Below the pieces are notes generated by a model, which worked only from the letters and a program-made list of their open reading frames with translations, was not told where the DNA came from and did no database searches. A stretch of 64,000 nucleotides of DNA. Source: an uncultured Bdellovibrionales bacterium. GTDB lineage: Bacteria; Patescibacteriota; Minisyncoccia; Moranbacterales; UBA1568. Of the stretch, positions 5,696 through 56,758 are shown piece after piece. Position 1 is the first letter of the stretch. Each line of letters starts with the position of its first letter. Where the stretch lies: NCBI GenBank assembly GCA_964624415.1, contig CAZUWR010000001.1:180256-244255 (forward strand), given 5' to 3'. The position numbers and the translations under genes are program-made.

Positions 5696-5774
5696 AGAGT
5701 GTCGAGTAAAGGCCTCCGGCGCTTTTACGAGACATGATAAATACTATTTTATATAAAACAAAGAGGGTTTACAA

Positions 5775-6317
5775 ATGAATATCAAACGTATTTGCACCAT
5801 ATTGGCTATCATTAGCTTATTGGTATTGTTCATAGCGGAAGTTGTGAATTATAGTCGTGCAACGAGTACAACTGAAGCAGATGCTTCGGTTTCGATAGTG
5901 GAGCAATATACTACCACCAATCTTGATCGTGTTGCCGCGCATTGTTCAGTACAGTTCAATGATGTATTTTTGAATGCCGCTAATACGATACGGCTCCTAA
6001 GAAGACCCGTATCCATCGCGGAAGCAAAAACGCAATTGGAGTTACTGGATCGCCTTAGCCGAGTAGAGGTCAATCAGATCAATAGTATTTGCGAAAGTGG
6101 TCGGCACAAAGCCTTTCTGGCACGTCTTGCCGTAACGCAACATACAGACTACTTCTTCGATACCCATACCGGGGTAAGCGTCGATGATAAACTCCTGTTG
6201 CTCAATAGGATTCCAGCGAATCAAACAACATTGGTCGCTCGCATAAAAAATCGTCTCCAAAAAATGGGTTGCAATGTTCAACAAGTTGATTTCGCATATC
6301 ATTGCGCAATTAACTAA
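5775..6317 (+). CDS. Hypothetical small secreted or membrane-anchored protein
   Basis: 180 aa with an N-terminal hydrophobic segment (ICTILAIISLLVLFIA). It is driven by the consensus promoter and followed by the terminator at 6339-6376. There is no pilin G-F-T-L-I-E motif. Confidence 0.45.
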   Translation: MNIKRICTILAIISLLVLFIAEVVNYSRATSTTEADASVSIVEQYTTTNLDRVAAHCSVQFNDVFLNAANTIRLLRRPVSIAEAKTQLELLDRLSRVEVNQINSICESGRHKAFLARLAVTQHTDYFFDTHTGVSVDDKLLLLNRIPANQTTLVARIKNRLQKMGCNVQQVDFAYHCAIN

Positions 6318-6338
6318 AAACCGATTACAGCGTGGCTA

Positions 6339-6376
6339 GAAAAACCCCGAACATGTGAATGTTCGGGGGTTTTTAT
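6339..6376. terminator. Bidirectional rho-independent terminator
   Basis: aaaaACCCCGAACATgtgaATGTTCGGGGgttttt. A GC-rich 13-bp stem with an A-tract on the 5' side and a T-tract on the 3' side sits between convergent genes. Confidence 0.7.
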
Positions 6377-6395
6377 ACCCAAGACTCTCTTTCAC

Positions 6396-7925: not shown

Positions 7926-8121
7926 AGTTGTGCAAACTATCCAAACCGTATCGATTTTTCTCAAAAACAAGACTCGCCGACCTTTTCCGTTACCTAAAAA
8001 TATCCCTCACTCGACACAATCAATGGCTATTTTTAGAACGGAAAAAGTCGTCTCAGACACGTTGTTTTCTTAAAAATCAATACGATTCGGATAGTTTATT
8101 TTAATTACAATTTAAAAGGCA

Positions 8122-9942
8122 TCACCCGCCGCTCTCATCCGCAGCTTCATCATCCGCGGTGCCGCCCTGATGATTCCACCACTCGCTCCAGGTGTAGCGC
8201 TCCGGCACGCTCGATACCGCAGGAGTTACATTCGGAACTTCCGGTTCGATAATCTGCTTTTCCGCCGTGATGGCCTTGGCTTTCGGCTGTAAGTGAAACA
8301 CCGTAAGCGTCCCTATTTCTTTTTCTTCTACCACATCGTACGCCGTCATATACTTTTGCAAACGATTGGTATGGTTGGACTCGGTACGGAGAATAAGGAA
8401 GTAATTGCCCTGTATATAGATACCATTGCTGTACCCGAGCACATCGTTGGTCATACCGCGACGTTCCATCAGGTACTTGAGAGCGCGCCTGTGCTCGGGC
8501 TCGCTGAACATATAGATCGGATACGTATTTTTCTTCTGAAACAGTTCCATATAATCCAAAACTTTCATCTGTTGTTCTAAAGTCACACGGGTTTTTTCTT
8601 TGAGTATCCTATCCGGCAAGGTATCGAAATTCTCAACAGAAGCGCGTTTGAGTTCACCCAATCGATGCGTCACGAAAAAGAGGTTGGACGCAATAAGTAC
8701 TGCCAACACCAGCCACACGATACCGGTAGCGATATATGCGTAGCGCTTCGCTGACTGCTGCAAAAATACGAGTAGCAGCCCGAAAAATACAAATGGAAAC
8801 GGCGCTATGAGCAGGAAGAATCGCGGCGCGAAATCATACGAAAGCGGTAAGAAAAGAGCGAAACAAGCGCCGAACCACAAAAACAACAAGAGAAGAAAAT
8901 CTTTCTTGCGCGGATCCGCCTCCTTCCACAAATTCCACATGAGGAGCGCTCCCCCGCCCAGAAAAACAACCATTGCCAGAAACGCTGACAGAAAATGCTC
9001 GTGGCAGTCATCATCGCAGATGAGCTCGAAATCGAATGTGCCCTGGCTAATGAATTGCCCCATCGAGGATTCCTCATAGCCGGTCAGTACTACCCAGTAC
9101 CCCAAAGCATGATTGGTGGTATCATGCACAAATTGTTCTACTAACGTATGATGCGACTTGTTGGACTTTCCGTGCACCGCCTGTATGAACTCTTGAGTAT
9201 TGGCACCGCCGGTAATCATTTCGTTCAAAAGCATCGGCATATACATAACCGCGATGACCGCGACCACAGCGAGCCACACTTTCCAGGAAAACCGCACACG
9301 CTTTATCAACAAGAAAATACCGACAATGACCGGCAGCGAAACGAAGGCAAGAAAATGCAGATGTGTCGCAAACGTCAACAGAAAAGCGGACAAGACCAAC
9401 CATCGGTCGCGATGCATTTCATCCCTATCCACCGCACGCAGCAAGGCATAGAAACCCAGCATCAAAAAAAACGGTACCGGATTGGGATTCCACACGAATC
9501 GACCGTATAAGACCACAAAGGCCGAGACGGAAAAAAGCATAGTAAGACCCAGTGAAAGCGCTACCGTAAAGTACCGTCGCATCAGAAAGAAAAAGACGAC
9601 GATGGACGCGATGGACAACACAGCAATGGGTACCGCTAGACCTCCGGGTGTACTCCCGAACACCAAAGCGCCCAGGTACTCCATATAGTAGAATCCCGGT
9701 CCGAGACGCAAGAACGTCCCTCCGGCACGAGGGCCGAGCAGCGGCAGATTGCCGATACCCTGATCGATGGCCAGGGCGATCACTTTGGCATCGCGAGCCT
9801 GATCGAGCTCGAAGTGCAACCAATCCGACAGATGGTACAGGCGTAAAAACGCACCCAGCACCACAATGAGCGCCATGACTGCAAACACGCCCCGCTTTCC
9901 TTCGAAAAACTGTTTCACTTTCTTTTTCGGGCTTTTTAACAT
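8122..9942 (-). CDS. GT-C glycosyltransferase, ArnT/PMT-like family (paralog 2)
   Basis: 606 aa and multi-TM. It has LGAFLRLYHL...ELDQARDA (a DE/DxD-like motif in loop 1) and a roughly 200-aa C-terminal extracytoplasmic domain with an acidic tail. Confidence 0.6.
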   Translation of the reverse strand: MLKSPKKKVKQFFEGKRGVFAVMALIVVLGAFLRLYHLSDWLHFELDQARDAKVIALAIDQGIGNLPLLGPRAGGTFLRLGPGFYYMEYLGALVFGSTPGGLAVPIAVLSIASIVVFFFLMRRYFTVALSLGLTMLFSVSAFVVLYGRFVWNPNPVPFFLMLGFYALLRAVDRDEMHRDRWLVLSAFLLTFATHLHFLAFVSLPVIVGIFLLIKRVRFSWKVWLAVVAVIAVMYMPMLLNEMITGGANTQEFIQAVHGKSNKSHHTLVEQFVHDTTNHALGYWVVLTGYEESSMGQFISQGTFDFELICDDDCHEHFLSAFLAMVVFLGGGALLMWNLWKEADPRKKDFLLLLFLWFGACFALFLPLSYDFAPRFFLLIAPFPFVFFGLLLVFLQQSAKRYAYIATGIVWLVLAVLIASNLFFVTHRLGELKRASVENFDTLPDRILKEKTRVTLEQQMKVLDYMELFQKKNTYPIYMFSEPEHRRALKYLMERRGMTNDVLGYSNGIYIQGNYFLILRTESNHTNRLQKYMTAYDVVEEKEIGTLTVFHLQPKAKAITAEKQIIEPEVPNVTPAVSSVPERYTWSEWWNHQGGTADDEAADESGG

Positions 9943-22402: not shown

Positions 22403-22781
22403 CACGCTCTATCACGACATACCTATAAGCCGGATTCTGTGCATCGCTTTTGCAAGCGACCGGCTATCATTTCTCTAGGCGCGGCATTGCTGCCGTGCTC
22501 AAGCGGTACTCCTCGGATACAAATCCAAGGCACGACCTTGCACTCGGGTAAGGATTTAGCCGTTTCACCCTCGATATTGCTATCAAGGCTCATCCTCACC
22601 GAAATGAGGATGGCTTCTTTTTTCAAAGAAAGCCGTCTCTGCTCGCACCTCTGTCCTCGCGGACGACGGGAATTACCCGCTACCTGTCTGCTTGTGTCGC
22701 CACAAGCGAGTGTCCGGACTTTCCTCACCCTCCCGTCGAAACGGAAGGGCGCGATGGCCCGATATGTCGTGATAGAGCGTA
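22403..22781 (-). ncRNA. rnpB: RNase P RNA (bacterial type A-like)
   Basis: The minus strand contains the universal P4 motif GAGGAAAGUCCGGAC (+ strand 22711-22727) and the 3' motif ACAGAAUCCGGCUUA (+ strand 22424-22440). The 5' CGCUCUAUCACGACAUA and 3' UAUGUCGUGAUAGAGCG form a perfect 17-bp P1 helix. Length is about 380 nt. The ORFs at 22423..22728(-) and 22439..22858(+) are artefacts over this RNA. Confidence 0.85.
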
Positions 22782-22915: not shown

Positions 22916-25138
22916 TCATTTCTTGCTGTAGCGTCCATAGGTTGAAATACTGTCATCACCTGTACACGTAGGTTCTTCACCTCGAGGATTCACACAGGCT
23001 TGTATCGTATGCCATTGCTTTTTCCAGGAACCGTCTTTGGGTATTCTCCAACGGTCTCCGTCCATAGAGTCTTCATCCGTTTTACCCGGAGAAAGCTCGC
23101 TTGGAGAAATGGTGCCGTAACCGATGTTCCACCATGCTCCTCCTGTACCGTTACTTGCGATACGATAAAGCACTCTGACATTGTTAAGCGGTGAAGCTTG
23201 TCCGTCATTGCGCACCCAGATATCGGGATAGACATACTCACCGGTATTGGTGGTACAGCATCCTTTTTGGTCTTGAAATTTGATAATGACAAGATTTGGT
23301 TTAGGTCTGGGTTGTAAAGTGAAGCTCAGAGTCGAACAGTTGTTGTCTTCCCCTTCACTCGTAACCGCATTTTGATAATCAGCACACAGATAGGCCGTGC
23401 AATTTCCCGTCGCATTTGGCATCGTAACCGCAGCTTTGGTTTCTTCCCAGTTGTTTTGTCCGGGAATCAGGTTATAGCTTTCCGTTCCATCATCCGTCAG
23501 ATAGACGGTGCCGGTACCGGGGCATTGTACTGAATAACTGCTGCGGATACCGACTTGAGATGGATTGCTTCCGATGTTTTGGATATATCCGCCAAGTCTG
23601 CCTTGGTCTCCCGCATAAGTTGGAGTTTGTAAAAATTGAAGAGAATGAGCTATGAAGTCGATGTTTGGAACATTGACCACTTGCCCATCGGCTGTGACTT
23701 CGAAGACCGCTTCCGTCGAACCGTTATTGCTTTCGTGCTTTTCAGGATACGCTCCTCCGTTATTGTGATCATCTCTGATATGGTCGATGTAAGCAGTGAT
23801 GTTGTAAATACCAGGCTCGGGAATATCTCTCCAAAGCTCGATACCTTCTTCCTCTTCATGCGTCATCGCAGGAGTCATTCCTGATTTGAGGTGATCGCAT
23901 TGGATGAAATCGGTACCGACCCGTTTCCAGGCATGAGGTCCGCTATGGTCATCTTCTTTGTATCCTTTGGACAGATAGAAATGCACTTCAACCGGTTTTG
24001 AACAATCACCGTTGCCATCGCCTTTGTTTTCAAACTGAGCGTGCATCTGCATCTTCTCGGGAGAACCGTAGGTGTAGCTTTCCGTTTGCCAAGGAGTTGT
24101 GAGCCAGACTTTGTTGGTAACGTAGTCGGGTGGTGGAGATTCAATCGGATCAGTAACGGCAGACGCGCCACCAGGACCTTTTGATGGAATAGTGGCAAAT
24201 CGAGAGATGATTGTCGCCTGTCCGTTTGATAGCATATCATTCGGAATAGCGCCATTGGAATTATAAATTGCATCTGAAACTGCATCCTGAAAAGGATTAC
24301 CAGCGAAACAATCAATATCATCTCCTTGCTTTGCATACCAACAAATAGTTTTGTGATCAGGAACAACCATATTGCTGAAACCATCACTTTCCACTACAAA
24401 ATAGTCAAAGCCATCACCATTTCCGTCATTGGCATACCCATTCAATTGATGGTCACCATTATCATATGCAACTATCATTGGGTTAAGCAATGAAGTATCG
24501 ACGCTCACCTGAAAAATCAAACGCACATCACCGATTTCTTGAATCACAGGCATTGTCGATGGATTACTAATCGATGCACCTTGAGCATAAAAAGCGACAA
24601 CATACACTTTCCCGACTTCCAGTTTATGCGGATTTCGAATCACAACGCCATATCCCGGATGACTATCAAACTCAGGTGTATCTTGAAATAATCCTACGTC
24701 ATCATGGATATTTAATCCAACCGCTCTCCCAAGTGGACGAAAAACATTATTCTTCAACGGCGAAATATCAATCTCCAAACCCATTGGAAAACGAGTATTG
24801 GAATCAAGAAATTTTGACTTAAAGAAATCAATCATTTCATTATCCACTTTAAACGCTATGAGAATTACATTATCCCCAACCGCAACCTTACCTTTTGTTG
24901 GAATCCAACGATGAGGTCTGCTCAACAGTTGATTTTCTATGCCGCTCGCCTCAAACAAAGTTTCGTATCCTTGACCTTTGCATTGAGCATGTTTATTAGC
25001 GGTATCAAAAATAGAAATCTTTTGCGGCATAACCATACACCACCAATACGTTGAGCTTATTTTATCACTCAAAGTACCGGCAGCGACATTCTGCATTGCA
25101 AAGAGCAACGACAGTACTACTATTATACGTAAGAACAT
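22916..25138 (-). CDS. Large secreted protein with CARDB-like repeats
   Basis: 740 aa with an N-terminal signal peptide (MFLRIIVVLSLLFAMQNVAAG). It is Gly/Asn/Asp-rich. The CARDB-like segments are ...PEKHESNNGSTEAVFEV... and ...TSEGEDNNCSTLSFTL.... Confidence 0.5.
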   Translation of the reverse strand: MFLRIIVVLSLLFAMQNVAAGTLSDKISSTYWWCMVMPQKISIFDTANKHAQCKGQGYETLFEASGIENQLLSRPHRWIPTKGKVAVGDNVILIAFKVDNEMIDFFKSKFLDSNTRFPMGLEIDISPLKNNVFRPLGRAVGLNIHDDVGLFQDTPEFDSHPGYGVVIRNPHKLEVGKVYVVAFYAQGASISNPSTMPVIQEIGDVRLIFQVSVDTSLLNPMIVAYDNGDHQLNGYANDGNGDGFDYFVVESDGFSNMVVPDHKTICWYAKQGDDIDCFAGNPFQDAVSDAIYNSNGAIPNDMLSNGQATIISRFATIPSKGPGGASAVTDPIESPPPDYVTNKVWLTTPWQTESYTYGSPEKMQMHAQFENKGDGNGDCSKPVEVHFYLSKGYKEDDHSGPHAWKRVGTDFIQCDHLKSGMTPAMTHEEEEGIELWRDIPEPGIYNITAYIDHIRDDHNNGGAYPEKHESNNGSTEAVFEVTADGQVVNVPNIDFIAHSLQFLQTPTYAGDQGRLGGYIQNIGSNPSQVGIRSSYSVQCPGTGTVYLTDDGTESYNLIPGQNNWEETKAAVTMPNATGNCTAYLCADYQNAVTSEGEDNNCSTLSFTLQPRPKPNLVIIKFQDQKGCCTTNTGEYVYPDIWVRNDGQASPLNNVRVLYRIASNGTGGAWWNIGYGTISPSELSPGKTDEDSMDGDRWRIPKDGSWKKQWHTIQACVNPRGEEPTCTGDDSISTYGRYSKK

Positions 25139-25244
25139 TTTCTGTTCCTCCTGATGTTAAAGAGCTACAATGGTTTTCGAAAGGCGATGTTATGCCTTTC
25201 TTACAAAAGAGAGTTCTGATTCTCTTCTGAAAAGAAAGGAGCAA

Positions 25245-25679
25245 CTATTTTTTGGAAAGGATATCAATGAAGCTTTGAATGCGGGCAACTTGATCTTTTC
25301 GACCATTACTCTCACGTTCATTTGCCTTACTTATCCAAAGTAACTCTCCCTGAGCAATCTCCAACAATTCTTCTTTTGTATACTCTTTTCCCCACGCAGT
25401 TTTTTGTTGTCCTCGATCTATTGCAAGAAAAACGGCGTCATTTTCAGTGAAAAGAGGGTATATTGGCATTCCTTTTGGATATTCTTTGATACAATTTCCG
25501 TTAATATAATCATCAACACCGCAATGCCGATAGGAAACAGGGGGATCTGGCACAAAAATTGTTTTATAGTACACGACATCTTGAACATATAGAATAGCAA
25601 CCCAAAGTAAATAGAGACCAACCAGAGCAATAAAAGGAGTCGCTAAAATCCACAAAGAAATTCTGGTTATTTTTTTCAT
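25245..25679 (-). CDS. Hypothetical membrane-anchored protein
   Basis: 144 aa with an N-terminal TM helix (ISLWILATPFIALVGLYLLWVAILY). Confidence 0.4.
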   Translation of the reverse strand: MKKITRISLWILATPFIALVGLYLLWVAILYVQDVVYYKTIFVPDPPVSYRHCGVDDYINGNCIKEYPKGMPIYPLFTENDAVFLAIDRGQQKTAWGKEYTKEELLEIAQGELLWISKANERESNGRKDQVARIQSFIDILSKK

Positions 25680-25786
25680 ATCATGACATTATTAATATTC
25701 TTAGACCCTTATGAATCCGGGGAATTCCGAACCCGTTTCCAAACGACGGAGTTTCTCATCGCGTGGAAAGGATTCGGAAAAATGCC

Positions 25787-26509
25787 TTATCTGAAAAATT
25801 TCATACTCTTTAGAATGTTAGGGTAAGCAGCTCTAACTTCTGGATATCCAATAAGACCGTATGACAACGAGACTCTACTATTTTCTCGAAATATATCTGC
25901 ACTCAAACCAAATCCGCCATCCAATACGACCGCAGGATACTTATCAATAGTGGTCGTGAAAATCTTATCGCCGTATCCTTGTTTTCTTTTCAGCATAGCC
26001 TCTCTATAATTTAATGGCGTAGATGATATATTTTTATTTTGATAAATATATAAACATAAAGCATCTTCCTTCCCTCCTTCGTACCAATATTCTTTTCCTT
26101 TCTGTCCAAAACACACACCAAATTGTTCATTTCCACTGTAATACTTTGCAGTGGATGCATCCTCAGATTTACTTAAATCATTCACATACCAATCCTTGGG
26201 TATCTTTATCTCAAACCCCATTGCCTCATTGCGATACGTTTGCCATTTGGAGGTGTCTACCGGGCTAAAAGTATACTCTCCATCAATAATATCATTGATA
26301 CTATCCAGCTCATTTCCTTGCGACACCGCCATCTCCGCGGACTGGCCATCAGACACATTTTGTCCGGGAATCGTATATATCGTCTTTATTTCACCCTCTA
26401 TCGGCGAAACTGTCATTTTCTGTTTCGTATACCAAAACCACCCACCGACGACGATAGCAATAATGAGTACGATAATGGCTACAATTAGCCTCTTTGAGAT
26501 GTTTTGCAT
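25787..26509 (-). CDS. Membrane-anchored protein of the MQNISK family (paralog of 46298..47035)
   Basis: The N-terminus MQNISKRLIVAIIVLIIAIVVGGWFWY is nearly identical to that of the paralog. Both share the internal motif W-x-TYRNE-x-GFE-x-K-x-PK. The start is at 26509; the ORF track extends to 26551. Confidence 0.5.
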   Translation of the reverse strand: MQNISKRLIVAIIVLIIAIVVGGWFWYTKQKMTVSPIEGEIKTIYTIPGQNVSDGQSAEMAVSQGNELDSINDIIDGEYTFSPVDTSKWQTYRNEAMGFEIKIPKDWYVNDLSKSEDASTAKYYSGNEQFGVCFGQKGKEYWYEGGKEDALCLYIYQNKNISSTPLNYREAMLKRKQGYGDKIFTTTIDKYPAVVLDGGFGLSADIFRENSRVSLSYGLIGYPEVRAAYPNILKSMKFFR

Positions 26510-32979: not shown

Positions 32980-34668
32980 TTATTTCCCACTTCTCGGCAT
33001 CTTGCGTTTCGGAGCGATCAGCCACAAGTGCTTCTGCACCCATTCGCCTAAACAAAATCGTATAATCGTCTTGACCAACACGATAGCCGTGAACATCGAG
33101 AACACTACACCGATAAGCAAGATAATAGCGAATCCTTTAACAAATCCCGTACCCAGCCACATCAGGATAAGACAGGTCAGTATGGTCGAGGAATTACCAT
33201 CACGGATACTAGGCCAGGCTCGACGGAAGCCTTCTTCGATCGCCTTCGGAAGCGACTTGCCGTTTTTCAGTTCTTCCCACGTGCGTTCAAAAATCAAGAT
33301 ATTGGCATCGACAGCCATACCGATCGAAAGGATAAATCCGGCGATACCTGACAGCGTAAGCGTGATAGCGAAGGGTGTGTATGAAGAAAATTTGAACACC
33401 GTGACCAGAATCGCCGTATACAGCACGAGCGCCAAAGCAGCGATCAATCCGAGGAAACGATAGTAGATGATCATAAAGACGATGACGGTCGCCACACCGA
33501 TCAAGCCGGCAAAAAGGCTTTTGTGTAAAGATTCTTCACCCAAAGATGCAGAAACACTCTGCTGTCCGTCTAAAGTAATCGGTACCGGAAGCGCTCCTTC
33601 ATTGAGCCGAGCCACCAAAGCCTTGGCCTCCTTTTGCGTGAAGTTACCGGTAATAACCGCCTTGCCATTGGTGATTTCGCTTTGAACAGTTGGGGCGCTA
33701 ACGATCTGCCCGTCAATAAAGATGGCCATCTGTTTTCCGAGATTTTTTTTCGTTAAGTCGGCAAACAACTGCGTCCCCTCGGCATCAAAAGTGACAGCAA
33801 CCTGCGGATTGCTCAAACCCTGATTCTGATACTCGACATGCGCATCCTGCAGGTTCTTGCCCGTCAGTCCTGTCTTGGTCCATGCCAGATCCGGATACAT
33901 ATCAATAGTCTGCTTGCGGAACAAAATATGCTCAGCGCGAACTTCTTTATTGTCGCCATCGCCACGCTCCTCAACTTTTTTGATGATATGCCACCCGTAC
34001 TGACTCTCTACCAAATCCGGCCATACATCACCTACTTTCAGATCATTATTAAAAATCACATTATCGAATTCCGGTACAAATTGGCCTTTCTTTGCAAAAT
34101 CAAGATCACCGCCGCTCTCTTTGGATCCGGGATCTTGGCTGAATTGCTTCGCCAGGTCTTCGAAATTTTCGCCATTTTTGACGCGCACCAGCATAGCCTG
34201 GGCATCTGCTTTGGCTTTCGCATTGGACTGATCAAACATCTGGGCCACCTCAGGTCCCGCTGCTTCTTTGAACTCGAGCAACGGCGTATCCTTGAGCATT
34301 TTCTTCGCCTGCTCGATATCTTTGATACCCGGGAGTTCTACGATAATATGGTCCTCGTTGCCAGACTTGGCCAGCTGCACGAGCGGCTCACCGACACCGA
34401 AGGCATTCACTCGGCGCTCAATCACTGCTAAAGAGGACTGCAGCGCATCGGCTTTTTTCTCTGCCGGAACCTGCGAGACATCCAAAGCATACTCAAGCCG
34501 GACACCTCCCTGCAAATCCAAACCGAGGTTGATTTTCGGCTTGTTCAAGAAATCCTGCACGGCCTGGGGCATAAACTTAGCCGCCTGAGGATACGCAAAA
34601 AACCCCGCCACGACAGCCAGCACTATAACCAACCCGAATTGTACTCGTATTTTCTGGCGAATTTTCAT
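32980..34668 (-). CDS. secD: Protein translocase subunit SecD with an embedded parvulin (PpiC-type) PPIase domain in the periplasmic head
   Basis: 562 aa. It has the SecD P1 start motif GLDLQGGVRLEY and C-terminal TM 2-6. Residues about 140-230 read GENFEDLAKQFSQDPGSKESGGDLDFAKKGQFVPEFDNVIF...YGWHIIKK, a full parvulin rotamase signature, where the P1 head subdomain would normally be. Confidence 0.85.
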   Translation of the reverse strand: MKIRQKIRVQFGLVIVLAVVAGFFAYPQAAKFMPQAVQDFLNKPKINLGLDLQGGVRLEYALDVSQVPAEKKADALQSSLAVIERRVNAFGVGEPLVQLAKSGNEDHIIVELPGIKDIEQAKKMLKDTPLLEFKEAAGPEVAQMFDQSNAKAKADAQAMLVRVKNGENFEDLAKQFSQDPGSKESGGDLDFAKKGQFVPEFDNVIFNNDLKVGDVWPDLVESQYGWHIIKKVEERGDGDNKEVRAEHILFRKQTIDMYPDLAWTKTGLTGKNLQDAHVEYQNQGLSNPQVAVTFDAEGTQLFADLTKKNLGKQMAIFIDGQIVSAPTVQSEITNGKAVITGNFTQKEAKALVARLNEGALPVPITLDGQQSVSASLGEESLHKSLFAGLIGVATVIVFMIIYYRFLGLIAALALVLYTAILVTVFKFSSYTPFAITLTLSGIAGFILSIGMAVDANILIFERTWEELKNGKSLPKAIEEGFRRAWPSIRDGNSSTILTCLILMWLGTGFVKGFAIILLIGVVFSMFTAIVLVKTIIRFCLGEWVQKHLWLIAPKRKMPRSGK

Positions 34669-42963: not shown

Positions 42964-45900
42964 TTACTTCGGCATCACATAATCCCCTGCCGTTACATCC
43001 ACCACTATCCCCGAACCGAAAGCGAAGGTGGCGACGCTTTGCCAACTTTTCGTACCATTGGTCAGTGTCAGATAGGCATTGCCCCCAAACTCGGGAGGCA
43101 GTCCCGTAAAGACGAGAGTCCAGATACCACTTGATGAACGAGCAACCGTTCCGGCAATCAGTTTGGTTGCCTGACCGGTCGGAGCTATCCACGCATCGAA
43201 ATACCCGTCTTTGGTGATGTGAGAGATATTGGTAATACCGTTGAATGATGTCAGCATCCGACTATCGCCATTGATAGTAAGCGTCAGTTTTTGCTGGCCT
43301 TTGTCATAGGTCACCTCTCTTTTTTGAAAAGGACTGGCACTAAGTGGGAGTTTGTAGTCTCCATTGGCATTGACGATGGTTGCACCCACAGGTAGTATCC
43401 ACTGATTGGTGGTTTGCCATCCAAATTGAGTTCCATCAGTCAGTCCGAGAAGTATCCTTCCCGTGCTTCCCGGAGCGACGTTTGCTATGCTCGCTATCAG
43501 TTTCCCGTTCGCATCACAACTCAATTGCCCTGGCATTCCCGGATAATTGTCTTGGTCATTGTTCCAAAAGACTTTTCCGTTGAGGACAGTGCCTGTCGGG
43601 AGCCAGAATCCTGAAATGACCTTTGATGAGAAAGCGGTATTGAGCGCCATACCCGAAGCATCTTCACTGACCGTAACCGTATTGGGAGTCCATCCGTTGT
43701 AACGGATATGTCCATCGGTATCATTTTCTAAAAGAGTGATGGTACTTGGATTGACCCAGTATTCCGTATCCCCTTGTTTGAAAGACCACGTGCCTTTCGA
43801 AGCCTGAGGGGTGTTGGGAATATCCACTATCCAGTTGGTTCCTTGTAAAGTGAATGTATTGGCACAAGCTGTTGATGCAGTCACTCCCCAATTGGTATCG
43901 GCAGAATTAAAACAAATCCTTGTTACCAAGGACGGATGAAAAGAAGAGAAGCCTCCCCACACCAAACTGATTTTTGCTTGCACCAAGGTGGATGCAGGTA
44001 GAATCAGTCTTTGCTTGTTGTTCCCGAAAATGACCGCGCCGACGTCTCCACTTTGGATAGTCGGTATAGCGTTGAAGTCAGGGTCGGGCGCTTGCGCGCA
44101 ACTGGTGATGAGTGGGATGTTGGCCGGTTTATACACTATGGTATATACCGTCAACACCTTTTCAACACAGTTATCGCCTTCATTGGACTCGGCTATTTCC
44201 CCAAGATAATCGACACACGCTTTGAGAGTGTGCTGACCCGGAGTCGAAATCGAGAACTTCTCCAGCGTTTCCCGCTTGGTTTTACCTGTCGGTAAGTTTA
44301 TGGCCTGTACCTGGTCGGTACCCGCCAAGATACCGTCCCGATAGTAACCGATTTTGATAAGTTTATCCGCCAATCCGCCATCATTTCTGACTGTGAATCC
44401 GGGAGTAAACGTTTCATTGACTTCGATGACCTGTTCTCCGCCGAGGTCTATGGAGACACCGACGAGACTGGGTAACGGACGCACTTCATACGGCATCGAT
44501 TTGCAATTGTCCGTTTCATTGGTTTCCGCAATACGGTTATCAAAGTCGGGACAAACCATCAGCGTATGCATGCCGGGTGTCATCGGAGCGATAGCAACAC
44601 TAAGATTTTCCACCTTACTGACACCGCCCTTAAGATTTTCCCGTTGAATCCGGTCTGTACCAATGAGCGTGCCGTCATTGTAGTAGCCGATAAGCATGGT
44701 TTTTCCAAAGTTTTCTTCATTGTTTGTCAAAGTAGCGTCAATACTGAATGTTTCACCCGGAAGTAAAACGGTCTTATTGCCGATGATGGTTATATTGGTC
44801 GTCAATACATTAGCATTGCTCCACACAGTGAAAGGGTCTTCGATATGGCAATTGTCATTTTCTTTCAATTCCTTCACTTGACCCTGACTCGGTCCTGCGG
44901 AATCCGTACACCACACAAGATTGTACTTTCCCGGAAACTCCGGGGCAATAAAGTCTTCGTGCTCGGTATTGGTAGCGCCTTTGGCAAGACCTTTCGTATC
45001 TTCTTTGCCTTGGTCTTTCGGATTAGTGTCTATCTTATCCCCGTCGGATATCCAACACTGACTCTGAAACGCCGTCGCATCTTTAGTGCCGATATTCTTC
45101 GTCTGCATCCTGCAAAAGCCCGGTTCATTGATGTGCAATGTCGTGACCTTTGTCTTGGATGCGTTTTCGACATCGGAATTGTTGGCAATGAGATTGGCGA
45201 GTGTTCCGGTGTTGGTACCGCCGGTGACAGGCATCGGACCTGCGACTTCGGAACCGCCGCCAGCGTCTCCTGCACCTCTTGTACCTGCAAGAAAAACTGC
45301 ATCCTGAAAAAACATCATCGGGTTTACTGGTTTTTGTAAAGTATTGGCGCAATATGATTGTATTGCAGCATTACTCAGATTCCACGCCGCAGATAAAACA
45401 CCACCCTCACTTTTGAAATAATTTGTGTGAGAAGTTCCATTAACACAAGCTGAATTATTTACGCCTCTTGGATTCATCCAACACAAAATACCTCCTCCAA
45501 AGTTTTCATTAAGAACAAGACAATTTCCAGCACTATATCCATTAGATAAAATAAAATTAATGGGATTAGTATACTGTGATTTTATCCAATCGGAGTTGTG
45601 TCCAGCAACCTCGCAAAAATACGATGGATTAGTGGCTTTTTCATGCTCAGGTCTCCGCACTTCAAAGTGTAGATGTGCTGATCCTGACGCGCCATTATCC
45701 CATATACAACCAATCTGCTGACCAATTTTTATATTGTCGCCCAATTTTACTTTTGTGAATGAATGTCCCTTACCATTTACTGTTGACTGACATTGTACGG
45801 GATCCAGTTCAGCATGACCATAAATGGAGTAATATTGTACATTACCCATTGTATGCTCTAGAGAAATCCTTGACCAACCATTATCAATAACTGAAATGGC

Positions 45901-46185
45901 TTTTCCGTTAGCAATAGCATATATAGGAAAACCTTTATCTCCATTGGCAGTAGTGCCTTTTTTATTTATATCGACACCTGGATGAAGAATAGCTGAATCC
46001 CCACAGCTAGGATAAGGGGTAACATTGCCATTCGAAGCTTTGGTATCCTCTAAAAAATTATAACCAATCTGCTCAGATGGATTAAAATCAACGGGTGATC
46101 GAATCGTATTCTCACTATGCACTAAACATGGCATAGCCACTACCACAGATAAACCCAAACAAAACACTTTCGTTAGCTTTTTCAT
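42964..46185 (-). CDS. Large secreted M23-family metallopeptidase with multiple CARDB-like repeats and a C-terminal beta-rich domain
   Basis: 1073 aa with a signal peptide. The M23 motifs are HxxxD (GHAELD) and HxH (SAHLHFEV). CARDB-like repeats follow (PGMHTLMVCPDFDNRIAETNETDNC; TPGQHTLKACVDYLGEIAESNEGDNC). The C-terminal roughly 400 aa are Gly/Thr/Asn-rich. Confidence 0.7.
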   Translation of the reverse strand: MKKLTKVFCLGLSVVVAMPCLVHSENTIRSPVDFNPSEQIGYNFLEDTKASNGNVTPYPSCGDSAILHPGVDINKKGTTANGDKGFPIYAIANGKAISVIDNGWSRISLEHTMGNVQYYSIYGHAELDPVQCQSTVNGKGHSFTKVKLGDNIKIGQQIGCIWDNGASGSAHLHFEVRRPEHEKATNPSYFCEVAGHNSDWIKSQYTNPINFILSNGYSAGNCLVLNENFGGGILCWMNPRGVNNSACVNGTSHTNYFKSEGGVLSAAWNLSNAAIQSYCANTLQKPVNPMMFFQDAVFLAGTRGAGDAGGGSEVAGPMPVTGGTNTGTLANLIANNSDVENASKTKVTTLHINEPGFCRMQTKNIGTKDATAFQSQCWISDGDKIDTNPKDQGKEDTKGLAKGATNTEHEDFIAPEFPGKYNLVWCTDSAGPSQGQVKELKENDNCHIEDPFTVWSNANVLTTNITIIGNKTVLLPGETFSIDATLTNNEENFGKTMLIGYYNDGTLIGTDRIQRENLKGGVSKVENLSVAIAPMTPGMHTLMVCPDFDNRIAETNETDNCKSMPYEVRPLPSLVGVSIDLGGEQVIEVNETFTPGFTVRNDGGLADKLIKIGYYRDGILAGTDQVQAINLPTGKTKRETLEKFSISTPGQHTLKACVDYLGEIAESNEGDNCVEKVLTVYTIVYKPANIPLITSCAQAPDPDFNAIPTIQSGDVGAVIFGNNKQRLILPASTLVQAKISLVWGGFSSFHPSLVTRICFNSADTNWGVTASTACANTFTLQGTNWIVDIPNTPQASKGTWSFKQGDTEYWVNPSTITLLENDTDGHIRYNGWTPNTVTVSEDASGMALNTAFSSKVISGFWLPTGTVLNGKVFWNNDQDNYPGMPGQLSCDANGKLIASIANVAPGSTGRILLGLTDGTQFGWQTTNQWILPVGATIVNANGDYKLPLSASPFQKREVTYDKGQQKLTLTINGDSRMLTSFNGITNISHITKDGYFDAWIAPTGQATKLIAGTVARSSSGIWTLVFTGLPPEFGGNAYLTLTNGTKSWQSVATFAFGSGIVVDVTAGDYVMPK

Positions 46186-52229: not shown

Positions 52230-52343
52230 TTAATACATAAATAGCGGCGCTATAAGAAAAAGCAACATCGAAAGACCGGTCAGTACCGATATGACCACCC
52301 AAATAGCATATATTTTTTTGTGACGCTTCTGAAAATTTTGCAT
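52230..52343 (-). CDS. Unannotated small ORF encoding a 37-aa single-TM peptide (MQNFQKRHKKIYAIWVVISVLTGLSMLLFLIAPLFMY)
   Basis: My own six-frame reading. An AAGGA sequence lies 10 nt upstream of the ATG. It is shorter than the ORF-track threshold. Confidence 0.3.
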   Translation of the reverse strand: MQNFQKRHKKIYAIWVVISVLTGLSMLLFLIAPLFMY

Positions 52344-52445
52344 ACGAGACAATCCTTAATAACAGTATCTATCCTACTGAATAGTATACCAATATACCTG
52401 TCATTTGTCTAAATGAGGGCTTACGCGTAGCTCTAAACAACTCTC

Positions 52446-54365
52446 TTAAAAAAGAGCTGGGGTGCTGCGGGTATCGTCTGCGGGAGCATCGTCGGCTGGT
52501 GCACTTGGTTGAACAAGGGCAGTTGAAGGTGATGATGCATGCGCAAATTTCTTGGGCGCAATGTATTCCATCTGGGAAAGCGAGAGCGGTTTGGCATCGG
52601 AAACACGCACGCCTGAACGCACATTGTTCGCCTCAAATACTCCTTGAGAGGGCTGCGCCGCTCGCGGAGCCATAATGCGCGAACTTCCCTGCAATTCCTC
52701 TTTCGCCTTGGCTGCTGTACGCTGATATTCCTTGAGGTGATCGCGACAGAATGTCGGCCGTTTGCCATCCGGTTTGAAAGGCACATTGATTTCCGTATCG
52801 CACACGGCGCAGTACGCGATATACAATTGTTTTTCAACTACCGGTATCGGCTCTTGCGCCACAACATTGCCCGCAGGCATCGCGGCTATTTCTTGCGGCG
52901 CTACAGTAGCTGCCGGCGCAGACACGGCAGGGCGAGGCGAAGGTGCTACTGCCGATACAGGCGCAGCAAAGATTGGCGCAGGCATACGCTGTTGAGAAGC
53001 TGCTGCTGGCGTCACCGGCATACCGACCGGTCGCGCCGCCCGACTCTCCGCCACTCGACTGGCAAAAACCGCTCGCTCCGCCTCAGTGAGCATACCCGTC
53101 CAGCGCCTGATCTTATCCTCGACATCCTGCTTTTTGGATGTATAACGCTCCCGTGAAATACGGATAACCTTTTCGATATTCTCCGCGGTTCCGTGAAGCT
53201 CAATAGGCGGCAACACCGTCGCACTGAAAGCATCCCCTGCCACCCCATCGATCATCAATTTCAAATAGATATTAAACTTGGGCAAATTAACCAAATCGTT
53301 CACCATAAAAATCGGCTCGAATTCTTTTTCGAGAAATTCCGCATCGGCAGCACCGACTCGGAAGCTGATAATCGTACCCGCATTGCCGAAAATAGCATCA
53401 CGCACCTTCTCATCCACCTGAGACACATACTGGTTGGCAAGGATAAGGCTGAGGCGATATTTTCGAGCTTCGGACAAAATATTGGCAAAAGATTCCGTGG
53501 CGAAGTTTTGGAACTCATCGACATAGAGGAAAAAGTCCTTTCGGGTATCTTCTTCGATATCCACGCGACCCATCGCCGCCAACTGGATTTTCGTGATCAT
53601 CATCGCTCCCAACAAGGCACTGTTATCCTCACCGATACGTCCCTTGGCCAGATTGAGAATAAGGATTTTTTTCGAATCCATCGCTTCGCGCACATCAAAC
53701 GACGACTTGGTCTGTCCGACGATATTGCGGATAAGCGAGCTCGACAAAAACTGCCCGACCTTGTTTTGGATCGGCGCGATCACTTCCTGCAACACGCGAT
53801 CATTCCATTTGGTAAATTCATCCACCCAAAACGACTTCACTACCGGATCAGTCACTTTGTCCACCACGCGCTTGCGGTATTCTTTGTCTACCAATATCCT
53901 TGTGACGCCCAAAAGTGTGCTCCCAGGGTATTCCAAGAGCGCCAAGATGGCATTGCGCAAGATGTATTCCAAGCGAGGTCCCCACGAATCCGCCCAGATT
54001 TTTTTGAACACACCGACCAGACCCGAAGCGACCAAATGCCGATGCTCCAAACTCACGCTTTCCATCACATTAAAAGCTAATGGAAAATCCTGATCGGCCG
54101 GATTGAAATAGATGACATCATTGATACGATGAGCCGGAATAGCCTTGATAATCTTTTCAGCCGTGTCACCGTGCGGATCGATAAAAGCGACACCATGGCC
54201 GTGCTGGATGTCTTGGATGACCAGGTTCTCGAGCAGGTTCGTCTTTCCCATACCCGTCTTTCCGATCACGTACATATGGCGGCGCCGATCATCGGTCTTT
54301 ATACCGAATACCCGTTGCTGATTGCGAAAATTGGTCTTAGCAAAAAAAGTGATTTCTTGTTGCAT
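52446..54365 (-). CDS. P-loop NTPase of the TraD/TraG/VirD4 (type IV coupling protein, AAA_10/DUF87-like) family with a C-terminal Pro/Ala-rich linker and zinc ribbon
   Basis: Walker A IGKTGMGKTN; Walker B FFLYVDEFQNF. The C-terminus has a PAPIFAAPVSAVAPSPRPAVSAPAATVAP linker followed by CAVCDTEINVPFKPDGKRPTFCRDH (CxxC..CxxH). Confidence 0.55.
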   Translation of the reverse strand: MQQEITFFAKTNFRNQQRVFGIKTDDRRRHMYVIGKTGMGKTNLLENLVIQDIQHGHGVAFIDPHGDTAEKIIKAIPAHRINDVIYFNPADQDFPLAFNVMESVSLEHRHLVASGLVGVFKKIWADSWGPRLEYILRNAILALLEYPGSTLLGVTRILVDKEYRKRVVDKVTDPVVKSFWVDEFTKWNDRVLQEVIAPIQNKVGQFLSSSLIRNIVGQTKSSFDVREAMDSKKILILNLAKGRIGEDNSALLGAMMITKIQLAAMGRVDIEEDTRKDFFLYVDEFQNFATESFANILSEARKYRLSLILANQYVSQVDEKVRDAIFGNAGTIISFRVGAADAEFLEKEFEPIFMVNDLVNLPKFNIYLKLMIDGVAGDAFSATVLPPIELHGTAENIEKVIRISRERYTSKKQDVEDKIRRWTGMLTEAERAVFASRVAESRAARPVGMPVTPAAASQQRMPAPIFAAPVSAVAPSPRPAVSAPAATVAPQEIAAMPAGNVVAQEPIPVVEKQLYIAYCAVCDTEINVPFKPDGKRPTFCRDHLKEYQRTAAKAKEELQGSSRIMAPRAAQPSQGVFEANNVRSGVRVSDAKPLSLSQMEYIAPKKFAHASSPSTALVQPSAPADDAPADDTRSTPALF

Positions 54366-54385
54366 ACGGTTATATTATGACACTA

Positions 54386-55675
54386 CTATATAGGGAGATT
54401 AGAAGGCGAACCGCCACGCTTGGCACTGACACGAGTGAGCGCCGGGGAAATGACCGACATATCCGGAAGGTGAAATAAAGTCGCCAGCTCCGAGGTGCTG
54501 AGCACGAAAATGTTTTCAGCCGGATACCGGTCCCGATCGCAGTAACGGCGATACAAACGCCTCTGCAAAAAAAGCAGCCTCGATTTTGTGAAAAGATACT
54601 CCGCGGATGTCTTCGTTGGATTGTATGGGATGATACTATTGAGATTCGAGTCGCCGTACGGCTTGATAACCGCGCCGAAAATCGCCGGCAAAAAAGCGCC
54701 GCTGTTGTAATTCTCCCGTCGTCCCAGATACATAAATCGCATCTTGACCTTGAAAACATTTTTTCCGATATTGCTTTCGATAGCCTCAAGTACTTTTCTT
54801 TGCACCGGAGTCAAGCGAAGATCAAGAGGATCAGTAGGTTTGCTTTCCTTTTTTTCCGCCGACTCGGCCGCGCCGAAAAGACCGCGTATCACACCTCCGA
54901 CGATATCGCTTAAATGCTTTACGAGCTGGGATACTACTCCCGCCGGCTTTTCTTTTTTCCCTTTGACGATTTCATCCACCAACGTTTTGCCTTCATTGTC
55001 GTACCATGTAGAGCGTTCCGGGGAAATAATGTACTGCAGCCAAATTTTCTGCCCCGGAGGAAGCTTGCCGATGACTTCGATCAAACCTGCCAAAGGATCT
55101 ATCATCTTGCCCGTCACGCTTTCCTCGAACAGATGATACGTCTTAATAGGATACGCATCGGCCCTGGCCAGCTTCATATCGGTTCCCCATACGTTCCAAT
55201 CCTTATTAGGGACCAGTTTCGGCATTGCATTGACGTAATCCTCGACCTCCACGATTTCCACATCCGGATACTGAGCATACAAATGCGCTTCGATGAGGTT
55301 TCGGTTCACAGCGGGAGTGCGTATATAAAAATGGACATGACCATCTTCACCGACGACTTCAAGACTGAATTTCGGCGCACCCATACCCAAAACGAATTGC
55401 TCATACGTCAAAAACGCCTTGTCTGTGCCGGCCAAACCATCAAAGAGCCCCTCCATAAGCTGCGGGCTCTTTTCAATATCCTTAGGCGGAATAAGCTCAA
55501 GCATCACGCGCGGCACCTTGGATTCGTATCCGCCGATGATATGATTCATCCACACATACATAAACAAAGGATACAGCATGACTGGCAACGCCAAAAACCA
55601 CACCGAACCCCCGATAGAGGCAATCTGCGAAAAGGTATGCGTGATGTTCGCGATACTGGCAAGGAGAATATCCAT
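54386..55675 (-). CDS. Hypothetical membrane-anchored protein (two N-terminal TM helices and a large soluble domain), likely co-transcribed with the ATPase
   Basis: 429 aa. There is a 20-nt gap to the downstream ATPase gene. Confidence 0.4.
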   Translation of the reverse strand: MDILLASIANITHTFSQIASIGGSVWFLALPVMLYPLFMYVWMNHIIGGYESKVPRVMLELIPPKDIEKSPQLMEGLFDGLAGTDKAFLTYEQFVLGMGAPKFSLEVVGEDGHVHFYIRTPAVNRNLIEAHLYAQYPDVEIVEVEDYVNAMPKLVPNKDWNVWGTDMKLARADAYPIKTYHLFEESVTGKMIDPLAGLIEVIGKLPPGQKIWLQYIISPERSTWYDNEGKTLVDEIVKGKKEKPAGVVSQLVKHLSDIVGGVIRGLFGAAESAEKKESKPTDPLDLRLTPVQRKVLEAIESNIGKNVFKVKMRFMYLGRRENYNSGAFLPAIFGAVIKPYGDSNLNSIIPYNPTKTSAEYLFTKSRLLFLQRRLYRRYCDRDRYPAENIFVLSTSELATLFHLPDMSVISPALTRVSAKRGGSPSNLPI

Positions 55676-55741
55676 GAGTGTACTTTTAATTTACGCTTTT
55701 GTATTGGAGTGAAACGACACCTTCAGACTCTTTGCACGTCC

Positions 55742-56758
55742 TTACTTCAAAGTATAAGCGTCCTTGCCGACTTTGGCAAAAAAAGTATTGAGATTGATGA
55801 TAATAGTGGACTTCTTGACCTGACGAATACCCAAAACCCGGTCGATAATATCCGTGCGATTCATAGGCGCACCTTCTTTGCGGAGCACTTCGCGTATCAC
55901 ATCCCTAACCGTCCCTTGAGCATATCCCCACTCGGATAAAGCATAGGTCCCCCGTCCCACCAGAATAAATCGATTATCTTTGATGAGTTCATTGTGTACG
56001 GTTTGCGGATGCGTTTTCTTTTTGCTGTTCTTGTTAAGTCCGTATGTATCGATAAGACCGGTAATTTCCCGAAAATGTAGTGGCTTATGCGTCGACTTTA
56101 AGATAAGGTAGGCTTTCTCACGCGTTCCTTTTGGGGAAACATCACTCCAGAAGTGCAGTCCGAAGCGGCCGAAGACATTCTGCTTCACCTCTTTGGATAC
56201 TGCCAGATAATCGAAAAACTGCTGTCCTGTAATCGAAGAGGTATTCTTATGCGAAACCTTCTCCAAAAGAGTTTTTTTCTCAACTGCTTCCTTTTCGCCT
56301 TCAAGGACCTTTACCGTGTCGCGAACAATTGCCTTCCATACATCCAATGGGAAGTTCTTGAGAGCATAGGAACGCTGTATATGAGCATCTTCTTTGAGAA
56401 GCCCAATGGTTGAAAGGCACTCCAAGAAAAAATGAAGCGCGGCAACCTCCTTGGGATTACCTTTGCCCAGCACCTTCACAATATCGGATTCGCTCATGAT
56501 TCCGCTTCGATCCTTGAGCGCTGTCTCGATCCTCTTCTCTATCTCTTGAAAAGAGGCTTTATTACGTGATTGAACGTCTTTCAATGAGCTTCTGATAATC
56601 TGACGTACCCGTTCTCTGGTGATACGATACTTCTTACCGATTTCCTCGAGCGTTTTGGCCTGTCCATCCACGATGCCGAAGCGCTCGCGCAAAATGTCCT
56701 GCGACCTTACGAGGAGGCTGTTAGTGAGCTTTTCAAAATGAGCGTAAAAAGATTCCAT
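55742..56758 (-). CDS. Sigma-70 region-4-like HTH protein with a C-terminal HARE-HTH/winged-helix domain
   Basis: [32 protein letters not shown] is a sigma-70 r4.2 signature. The C-terminus [14 protein letters not shown]...[12 protein letters not shown] resembles the HARE-HTH of the RNAP delta subunit. Confidence 0.55.

Follow-up and report, generated by a model that had tools for sequence, protein, structure and literature searches.

What does a motor protein of the type IV coupling protein (T4CP) family do on a bacterial chromosome when no type IV secretion system (T4SS) is encoded beside it? The question is raised by a group of three genes in the DNA analysed here, a 64-kb stretch referred to throughout as the window. 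This is ordinary chromosomal DNA of a Moranbacteria-type Patescibacterium, and its proteins have named relatives in "Candidatus Moranbacteria/Moraniibacteriota". Patescibacteria account for a large share of bacterial diversity, and most of their conserved genes have no assigned role. The three open reading frames (ORFs) lie on one strand, and are given here in order of transcription, with lengths in amino acids (aa):

55742-56758, minus strand: ORF of 338 aa, a protein with sigma-70 region 4 and a HARE-HTH domain ("SigHARE")
54386-55675, minus strand: ORF of 429 aa, the DUF8128 (PF26449) partner of the ATPase, a membrane subunit
52446-54365, minus strand: ORF of 639 aa, an ATPase of the T4CP family with no transmembrane segment

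An earlier note on this DNA had placed the three ORFs at these positions, with 20 nucleotides (nt) between the partner and the ATPase, and this is correct; the gap between the SigHARE and DUF8128 genes is 66 nt. We argue below that the DUF8128 protein and the ATPase are very probably the two halves of a single coupling protein, that is, a split T4CP.

The identity of the motor is considered first. Its relevant features are:

53085-54365, minus strand: nucleotide-binding domain with an apparent helical insertion that resembles an all-alpha domain (aa 1-427)
54240-54263, minus strand: Walker A motif GKTGMGKT (aa 35-42)
53502-53528, minus strand: Walker B motif LYVDEFQNF (aa 280-288)

Both Walker motifs are invariant in an alignment of 32 homologues of 66-85% identity. 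The description of the protein as T4CP-like in the earlier note is well supported. In Pfam it matches TrwB_AAD_bind with an E-value of 1.6e-10, and also TraG-D_C, T4SS-DNA_transf and DUF87, each above the curated cut-off; bit scores (with the cut-off in brackets) are 40.8 (20.5) for PF10412, 23.3 (20.1) for PF02534 and 28.7 (22) for PF12696. Alignment of the ATPase family profile with TrwB of R388 using hhalign gives a probability of 95.8% and an E-value of 7.9e-9 over 268 columns. The alignment spans TrwB residues 109-393, and so begins after the TrwB membrane domain. TrwB and DotL are the nearest relatives by sequence in the PDB. AlphaFold2 models the ATPase poorly (pLDDT 54), probably owing to an over-uniform input alignment, and the best Foldseek matches of the model, to DotL, Cag-beta and TrwB, are weak corroboration only; within the model, a helical block at aa 109-216 has a pLDDT of 60-88. 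A Kyte-Doolittle scan of the ATPase found no hydrophobic segment. On the basis of the TrwB alignment, the PDB and Foldseek relatives, the missing hydrophobic segment and the negative FtsK search described next, the ATPase is a P-loop motor of the TrwB/VirD4 clade without a membrane domain of its own.

Two other identities were tried and rejected. Assignment to FtsK/SpoIIIE, which the earlier note had named as the outcome that would count against it, finds no support: FtsK_SpoIIIE is not among the 16 Pfam families that match the ATPase at E ≤ 0.1, and when the E. coli FtsK motor is used as a phmmer query, neither the window nor the related loci give a hit at E ≤ 1e-3. As for VirB4, the AAA_10 model scores 12.6 bits against a cut-off of 27.5, and hhalign alignment to TrwK is limited to 24 columns at Walker A, that to TrsE likewise covering Walker A only. 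A better match than the Pfam TrwB model is given by the PADLOC model mad8, from the MADS defence system of P. aeruginosa (2.1e-18, aa 8-365), and T4CP-like motors are therefore used in defence operons too. The HerA and DndH models match weakly.

Relatives of the ATPase are also carried by plasmids of Pseudomonas (128) and Streptomyces (121). Within the plasmid collection, the relative nearest to the ATPase domain is encoded on the alphaproteobacterial plasmid NZ_CP081110.1 of Sulfitobacter mediterraneus (locus L086, 8986-10173, plus strand; 41.9% identity, E 2e-100). It is a stand-alone protein of 395 aa, with neither partner nor zinc finger, and lies amid recombinase and transposase genes.

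The relationship of the ATPase to the DUF8128 protein emerges from proteins in which the two are joined. When plasmids are searched with tblastn, 15 of the 16 that are hit contain a single ORF with both matches, its N-terminal part aligning to the partner (aa ~87-265; E 2e-6 to 6e-4) and its C-terminal part to the ATPase; the hosts are Bacillus, Niallia, Peribacillus, Shouchella and Metabacillus. Most of these fused ORFs carry the annotation "DUF87 domain-containing protein", and examples are WP_229762801.1 on NZ_CP086062.1 and WP_144625398.1 on NZ_OX419581.1. Fused coupling proteins of 904 aa (on NZ_CP086062.1) and of 913 aa stand beside relaxases in Bacillaceae conjugation operons. On the 904-aa protein, hhalign places the DUF8128 profile at residues 57-310 (probability 97.5%, E 8.6e-12) and the ATPase profile at residues 343-734 (probability 99.9%, E 1.9e-32), and a reciprocal phmmer search with this protein returns both window ORFs, at 1.4e-42 and 4e-6. 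Over the ATPase region, the fused proteins are ~30% identical to the window protein. The same arrangement is found in the phage family phrog_5156, with the partner on positions 75-285 (E 4.7e-12) and the ATPase on 407-813 (E 7.9e-64), and in ORF23 of Geobacillus phage D6E (752 aa; locus L091, 5794-8052, plus strand), where hhalign places the partner profile on residues 59-356 (probability 91.7%, E 8e-7) and the ATPase profile on residues 399-722.

On the plasmids, the fused gene heads a conjugation operon, and is followed by genes for a Replic_Relax relaxase, conjugal-transfer proteins, TcpD/TcpE, a VirB4-like AAA_10 ATPase and a cell-wall hydrolase. ORF23 of D6E lies in the lysogeny region of a temperate phage, between a partition protein and an integrase, with no T4SS. 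(NCBI RefSeq names it [quoted passage not shown], while GenBank calls it MsbA.) The one fused protein read along its full length, from a plasmid of Bacillus sp. BC1-43, has an acidic C-terminal tail, no zinc finger, and no N-terminal hydrophobic stretch obvious by eye. On pFDU301A of Priestia megaterium (locus L088, 5744-9385) the fused gene seems to be broken into several frames, with the ATPase match in three pieces and a prematurely ended ORF at 5744-7348. PLSDB has no annotation for the region, and the break reflects either a pseudogene or a sequencing error.

Collinear matching of two separate proteins to single fused ones is a Rosetta-stone relationship, and it is on this ground that the two Patescibacteria proteins are held to be halves of one coupling protein. 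The window pair keeps the fused domain order, but as two ORFs 20 nt apart and not as one polypeptide. The partner would thus be the N-terminal and membrane part, here detached, of a family of long coupling proteins whose members on Firmicutes plasmids and in a phage are single chains.

The earlier note had credited the partner with no known domain. In fact it belongs to PF26449 (DUF8128), which corresponds to the N-terminal region of the fused coupling proteins: precomputed Pfam annotation assigns this family to the window protein itself and to each of its 120 listed homologues. To survey its neighbourhood, related loci (labelled L001 and so on) were searched with the window proteins, ORFs being called in 82 of them; in L001 and L002, the neighbour of the ATPase likewise carries PF26449. 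The partner has one feature that the ATPase lacks:

55538-55615, minus strand: hydrophobic membrane-anchor segment of the partner (about aa 21-46)

In a Kyte-Doolittle scan, aa 21-43 is the sole segment above threshold, and one such segment is present in 90 of 109 partner homologues. The earlier note had proposed two N-terminal membrane helices; hydropathy gives one clear segment and not two, and AlphaFold2 draws two N-terminal helices (model pLDDT 73.5, pTM 0.69). The membrane anchor of the pair sits only in the DUF8128 protein. The C-terminal α/β domain of this protein, of ~370 aa, would be cytoplasmic, as is to be expected from the direct fusion of a DUF8128-like domain to a cytoplasmic ATPase in relatives; the Lys/Arg residues that follow the anchor are consistent with this orientation.

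The predicted fold of the partner offers a suggestive lead. When its AlphaFold2 model is compared with the PDB using Foldseek, 13 of the 15 best matches are TrwK/VirB4 chains, the top one having an E-value of 1.7e-4 and a probability of 1.0, with a TM-score of 0.36. The resemblance to VirB4 is a hint only. Profile comparison of the partner with the VirB4 N-terminal domain, TrwK, TrsD, TrsE and VirB3 found no similarity, including when a 109-sequence DUF8128 alignment and a 4-sequence VirB4 alignment were used. The partner and its profile likewise gave no match to PDB sequences or to NCBIfam, and a Pfam scan of 35 partner homologues at E ≤ 10, without the PF26449 model, found nothing recurrent. 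A profile search of 1.84 billion representatives found DUF8128 in 2,782 clusters at 50% identity (E ≤ 1e-3). The best 150 representatives are all stand-alone proteins of 224-576 aa, with no fused or distant members among them, and no DUF8128 was found on IMG/VR viral contigs.

Beyond the motor domain, the ATPase has a tail of unusual composition:

52833-53078, minus strand: low-complexity linker (aa 430-511), 44% Pro+Ala
52731-52832, minus strand: treble-clef zinc finger C519-x2-C522-x17-C540-x2-H543 (zf_Tbcl_2 / TIGR04272)
52545-52589, minus strand: short linear motif PLSLSQMEYIAPKKF (aa 593-607), within an otherwise variable tail

The Pro/Ala-rich linker and the CxxC...CxxH zinc finger had both been noticed earlier, and both stand. 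Among homologues the linker varies in length and sequence (alignment columns ~430-690 are gappy and unconserved), and its AlphaFold2 pLDDT is below 50. The zinc finger is matched by Pfam zf_Tbcl_2 (3.8e-8, aa 512-542) and by NCBIfam TIGR04272, CxxC-x17-CxxC (3.1e-9). It is the only part of the AlphaFold2 model of the ATPase predicted with high confidence (pLDDT 89-94), and it is found in 75 of 77 complete homologues. The fourth zinc ligand is Cys in most of these, His in the window protein and six close relatives, and Asp in three loci; departures from the usual finger were noted in loci L063, L071, L075, L056 and L079. Zinc binding has been demonstrated for this domain family in small proteins of M. 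mazei (PMC12704099).

The short motif has the pattern P-L-S-L-S-Q-x5-P-K-K-F, in which P593, L596, Q598, P604 and F607 either do not vary or reach at least 90% conservation across the 32-homologue alignment. Two lineages without the zinc finger (L056 and L079) still have variants of this motif and a KPGQxxxF-like terminus. The 32 C-terminal residues (aa 608-639) are 41% Pro+Ala, with four acidic residues and one basic, in agreement with the acidic, Ala/Pro-rich tail that had been described.

The remaining protein of the group also has the two domains first ascribed to it, with Sigma70_r4 at aa 18-61 (2.9e-10) and HARE-HTH at aa 214-277 (4.2e-14) in Pfam. The NCBIfam model RNAP_delt_lowGC (TIGR04567) matches with 46 bits against a cut-off of 42. 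The HARE-HTH domain is internal and is followed by a conserved, non-acidic C-terminal region of ~60 aa. Scans with Pfam and NCBIfam found no sigma regions 2 and 3, and every NCBIfam sigma model that matches does so through no more than its final ~60 positions, scoring far below its cut-off. Sigma region 4 and HARE-HTH are otherwise known from proteins associated with RNA polymerase. This pair of domains is shared by at least 7,793 homologues, for which the source names are "HTH domain-containing protein" or, for some from JGI, "RNA polymerase delta subunit". The sigma region 4 also matches the defence-associated sigma factor MzaA (3.7e-11). A relationship to the Replic_Relax relaxases that stand beside the fused T4CPs was considered, and no similarity was found. 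Calling the protein a regulator, as the earlier note did, is an assumption: judged from its domains, SigHARE could equally be a DNA-targeting adaptor or a transcription factor of the module.

How widely are these genes found together? The ATPase has more than 8,000 database relatives, of which the best 120 are 62-100% identical and all combine ATPase and zinc finger. It occurs in at least 577 species (one genome per species scanned), and the named loci that carry it include Moraniibacteriota, Buchananbacteria, Uhrbacteria, Paceibacter and "Parcubacteria". Across the 32 relatives there is no variation in most columns of aa 1-425, and conservation returns at the zinc ligands and the short motif after hypervariable linkers. 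DUF8128 lies directly upstream of the ATPase in 76 of the 80 loci with enough upstream sequence, at a median gap of ~14 nt, and the full order SigHARE, DUF8128, ATPase is kept in 71 of the 73 loci, drawn from different species of Patescibacteria, with at least 2.6 kb upstream. The genes after the ATPase differ by lineage, DivIC-PrsA-HtrA being found only in Moranbacteria, and the conserved unit is thus the triad. The absence of synteny in relatives, which the earlier note had set against its own reading, is the opposite of what is seen. Its description of a minimal system typical of reduced genomes is loosely right, but the triad is better described as a Patescibacteria-wide chromosomal core module, not peculiar to one genome.

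Four loci (L054, L065, L073 and L081, with the ATPase at about 8000-9900 or 6800-8800) show a different order: ftsA-ftsZ-...-nrdR-nrdD-nrdG-ATPase-DnaQ-like exonuclease-large membrane protein-divIC-...-ftsE-ftsX. Many of the genome records that bear the module are titled "uncultured Bdellovibrionales" or "uncultured Gammaproteobacteria" (L004, L007-L009, L013, L058, L061 and others). These titles appear to be wrong, judging from gene content and from 55-75% identity to proteins of Moranbacteria.

In the window itself, the triad stands among envelope and housekeeping genes. Upstream are genes for an S41 protease, GT2, LytR-CpsA-Psr, GT4 and Wzy; downstream are DivIC, a PpiC-type foldase, two HtrA proteases and DUF5656; and farther off are LigA, PheT, GatA, SecD and the RNase P RNA. 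The GC content of the locus is unremarkable, and no flanking repeats were found at it. Neither the window nor 1.19 Mb of related loci contains VirB4 or a second T4CP, there are no T4SS genes in the window or within ±8 kb across 82 related loci, and no relaxase, pilin or integrase was recognised among the neighbour genes examined. This agrees with the earlier observation that VirB4, relaxase and pilin genes are missing here. One regulatory feature was identified:

55751-55779, minus strand: promoter-like site TTGCCA-17-TATACT, within the 3' end of the SigHARE gene and upstream of the DUF8128-ATPase pair

The site agrees with the consensus at 10 of 12 positions in a consensus scan, and is a consensus match only. 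No terminator-like site was found in the 20-nt gap between DUF8128 and ATPase. The predicted promoter before DUF8128 would allow, and does not prove, separate expression of the pair. Between the ATPase and DivIC lies a further ORF of 37 codons (52230-52343, minus strand; MQNFQKRHKKIYAIWVVISVLTGLSMLLFLIAPLFMY), with a basic N-terminus and a single hydrophobic helix. A promoter-like site is found upstream of it at 52383-52411, and the relative L002 has a 36-aa gene at the same position.

What, then, might the module do? TrwB is a hexameric DNA-dependent ATPase, and the C-terminal tails of TraD and DotL bind adaptors. We consider the chances about even that the split T4CP is now a fixed chromosomal module and an exapted translocase of DNA or nucleoprotein, perhaps acting apart from any T4SS. 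DUF8128 would anchor and scaffold the motor at the cytoplasmic membrane, where the ATPase would probably form a hexameric ring by analogy with TrwB. ATP hydrolysis would drive a polymer, most likely DNA or nucleoprotein, to or through a membrane channel. The zinc finger and short motif, on their flexible Pro/Ala tether, might capture the substrate or an adaptor in the manner of the TraD and DotL tails, and SigHARE might be that DNA-bound adaptor or the module's transcription factor. The role in surface attachment offered as an alternative by the earlier note has no support.

This exaptation is favoured by three lines of evidence, namely survey counts, housekeeping-like conservation and the phage homologue that has no T4SS. 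A survey of Patescibacteria genomes (Quinonero-Coronel et al., 2025, PMC12102498) reports, in the passages cited here, VirD4-type homologues in 2,918 of 3,035 genomes, with only 148 of the 5,713 homologues near virB4. Relaxases are reported there in 103 of the 3,035 genomes. In S. epibionticum the T4CP is dispensable and the T4SS essential, and the authors state in the same passages that exaptation of the T4CP homologues "cannot be ruled out". The ATPase domain of the window protein is, moreover, near-invariant among its relatives, unlike the fast-evolving T4CPs of plasmids.

Several points weigh against an exapted translocase. We infer its substrate, its oligomeric state and its partner contacts alike, and the AlphaFold2 model of the motor, with its pLDDT of 54, is of little help. 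Four loci (those listed above) have the ATPase without an adjacent DUF8128 or SigHARE gene. The anchor and the finger were not seen in the fused homologue, and the fusion, which supports physical association, is silent on the role of the tail. According to the cited passages of the survey, a VirB4 T4SS is encoded elsewhere in ~80% of Patescibacteria genomes, and T4CP genes are often unlinked from virB4 (PMC12102498). The T4CP counts, about two per genome, may include homologues other than this orthologue.

The frequency of VirB4 systems in Patescibacteria, together with the common lack of linkage, leaves room for the closest rival account, in which the pair is an ordinary coupling protein of a distant chromosomal T4SS (near oriC in many classes) and feeds effectors or DNA to the VirB4/VirB6 channel. 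We assign this an appreciable minority share of the probability. The T4CP homology of the ATPase is clear, the fused homologues are part of bona fide conjugation operons with VirB4 and relaxase, and the predicted fold of the partner best matches VirB4/TrwK, a T4SS inner-membrane component. The survey numbers can be read both ways: VirB4 is present in 2,417 of the 3,035 genomes with T4CP genes often distant from it, but T4CP homologues are found in more genomes than VirB4, and a T4CP that is non-essential where the T4SS is essential, as in S. epibionticum, is not what this account leads one to expect (PMC12102498, passages as above). The lack of T4SS genes in the window and within ±8 kb of the 82 loci also speaks against it, as do the extreme conservation and the constant DNA-binding companion, which are unusual for effector-coupling proteins.

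The surroundings of the ATPase in Moranbacteria invite another suggestion, that the module is a DNA pump for cell division or segregation, analogous to FtsK, with DUF8128 as septal anchor and SigHARE or the zinc finger as guide. A DivIC/FtsB gene follows the ATPase there, with only the short ORF of 36 or 37 codons between, and a second lineage has the ATPase flanked by ftsA-ftsZ on one side and divIC-ftsE-ftsX on the other. The long low-complexity linker with a DNA-binding end domain recalls the layout of FtsK, and conservation at housekeeping level would fit a division role. However, in Buchananbacteria, Uhrbacteria, Paceibacter and related loci the ATPase is followed by unrelated genes and is no longer linked to DivIC; the ATPase has no sequence relationship to the FtsK motor; and ftsK is annotated in at least Saccharibacteria TM7x (PMC10768705). 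We regard this function as improbable.

Still less probable, indeed very unlikely, is a module for defence against phages or plasmids built around a T4CP/HerA-like ATPase, comparable to mad8 of MADS. The PADLOC match to mad8, the weak HerA and DndH matches, the similarity of sigma region 4 to MzaA and the occurrence of HARE-HTH domains in restriction enzymes (Pfam description) all point in this direction. Against these, none of the other seven mad genes, and no nuclease or methylase, adjoins the triad, the MzaA match is confined to a generic sigma region 4, and a near-universal, highly conserved module fixed among housekeeping genes is the opposite of a defence island. Finally, it is scarcely credible that the triad is what is left of a decaying integrated conjugative element or prophage: although Firmicutes plasmids and a temperate phage carry the nearest multi-domain relatives, hundreds of species have unbroken reading frames on which purifying selection is strong, the chromosomal synteny is conserved, no integrase, relaxase or repeats flank the locus, its composition is ordinary, and DUF8128 is absent from viral contigs.

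Returning to the exapted translocase, a bolder form of it can be stated, which we put forward tentatively and with more doubt than belief. A coupling protein might have been captured by an ancestor of the Patescibacteria, split, given a zinc-finger tail and wired to a sigma-r4/delta-type protein, to become a T4SS-independent, phylum-wide DNA-handling machine. Its core task could be, for example, segregation at division, or export or import of DNA across the single membrane in episymbiosis. Should the module prove independent of the T4SS, it would clearly exemplify the domestication of a conjugation motor for core cell biology, and would be a target for genetics in the few cultivable Patescibacteria.

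Some other features of the window may be recorded here. In the SecD homologue (32980-34668, minus strand), the first P1 segment is separated from the P1 head by a peptidyl-prolyl isomerase domain of the PpiC type (aa 146-233), an insertion that would join a foldase to a translocon accessory subunit. An ORF of 740 aa (22916-25138, minus strand) has no Pfam match at E ≤ 1e-5; it lies in the stretch of lowest GC in the window (24001-26000, GC 0.399) and adjoins the RNase P RNA gene at 22410-22770. A 1073-aa protein (42964-46185, minus strand) combines an M23 peptidase domain with CARDB repeats, and is probably a large cell-surface hydrolase.

It remains to compare the module with known systems. 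With the canonical T4CPs TrwB of R388, VirD4, TraD and DotL, the ATPase shares the nucleotide-binding domain, the Walker A and B motifs and, apparently, a helical insertion. Canonical T4CPs have a C-terminal extension for partner recognition, and the window ATPase matches the Pfam "TraM recognition site" family TraG-D_C. They also have a two-helix membrane domain of their own and adjoin a relaxase or a T4SS, neither of which is true of the window ATPase, and both a DUF8128-type N-terminal domain and a treble-clef zinc finger are absent from them. A class of T4CPs that lack a transmembrane domain and use a separate membrane protein (class iii) has been described, TraJ and TraI of pIP501 being thought to form a VirD4-type complex (PMC7431656). 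The likeness of the window pair to TraJ/TraI is one of principle only; the pIP501 pair is plasmid-borne and inside a T4SS operon, and the window pair is not.

A comparable layout of membrane anchor, N-terminal α/β domain and ATPase of the FtsK/HerA superfamily, sometimes split, is seen in VirB3+VirB4 (TrwM/TrwK) and in TrsD+TrsE of pSK41/pGO1, although these have no sequence or profile similarity to the partner and the TM-score is just 0.36. MADS is an eight-gene operon, mad1-mad8 (bioRxiv 10.1101/2023.03.30.534895); the window ATPase matches mad8, but its neighbours match no other PADLOC model of MADS. The SigHARE protein may be set beside two families. RNA polymerase delta (RpoE) has an N-terminal HARE-HTH domain and an acidic disordered tail; SigHARE has such a domain, scoring above the cut-off of the delta model, but internally, and its C-terminus is non-acidic. 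Sigma-70 factors have regions 2 and 3 besides region 4, whereas SigHARE has region 4 only.

The orphan T4CP homologues of Patescibacteria described by Quinonero-Coronel et al. (2025) are probably the same set of genes, and are almost never near virB4; the survey counts thousands of them and leaves them unexplained. The passages of that paper cited here contain no DUF8128 partner, split/fused relation, zinc-finger tail or sigma-r4/HARE-HTH synteny, and the word "zinc" was not found in its text (PMC12102498). What is already known is therefore the existence of orphan Patescibacteria T4CPs, which is published, and that of DUF8128 and the zinc-finger domain as catalogued families. The pairing of DUF8128 with the ATPase, its equivalence to the fused Firmicutes T4CPs, the tail of finger and motif, and the sigma-r4/HARE-HTH neighbour appear to be new: a literature search found no paper that mentions DUF8128, and no description of the pairing, the fusion equivalence, the tail or the synteny.

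The closest comparison is with the fused T4CPs of Bacillaceae plasmids, phrog_5156 and ORF23 of D6E, which have the same two regions in the same order as the window pair. They differ in forming one polypeptide where the window has two; in being carried by mobile elements, beside relaxase and T4SS genes on plasmids or partition and integrase genes in the phage, where the window pair is chromosomal; and in having no sigma-r4/HARE-HTH neighbour annotated, where the window pair adjoins one. This comparison gives DUF8128 of Pfam a function-level context, as the N-terminal module of a T4CP subfamily. For the orphan T4CP of Patescibacteria, it supplies, in the DUF8128 membrane subunit, a concrete and testable architecture, and with the DUF8128 protein and the DNA-binding protein, the orphan ATPase now has two named candidate interaction partners.

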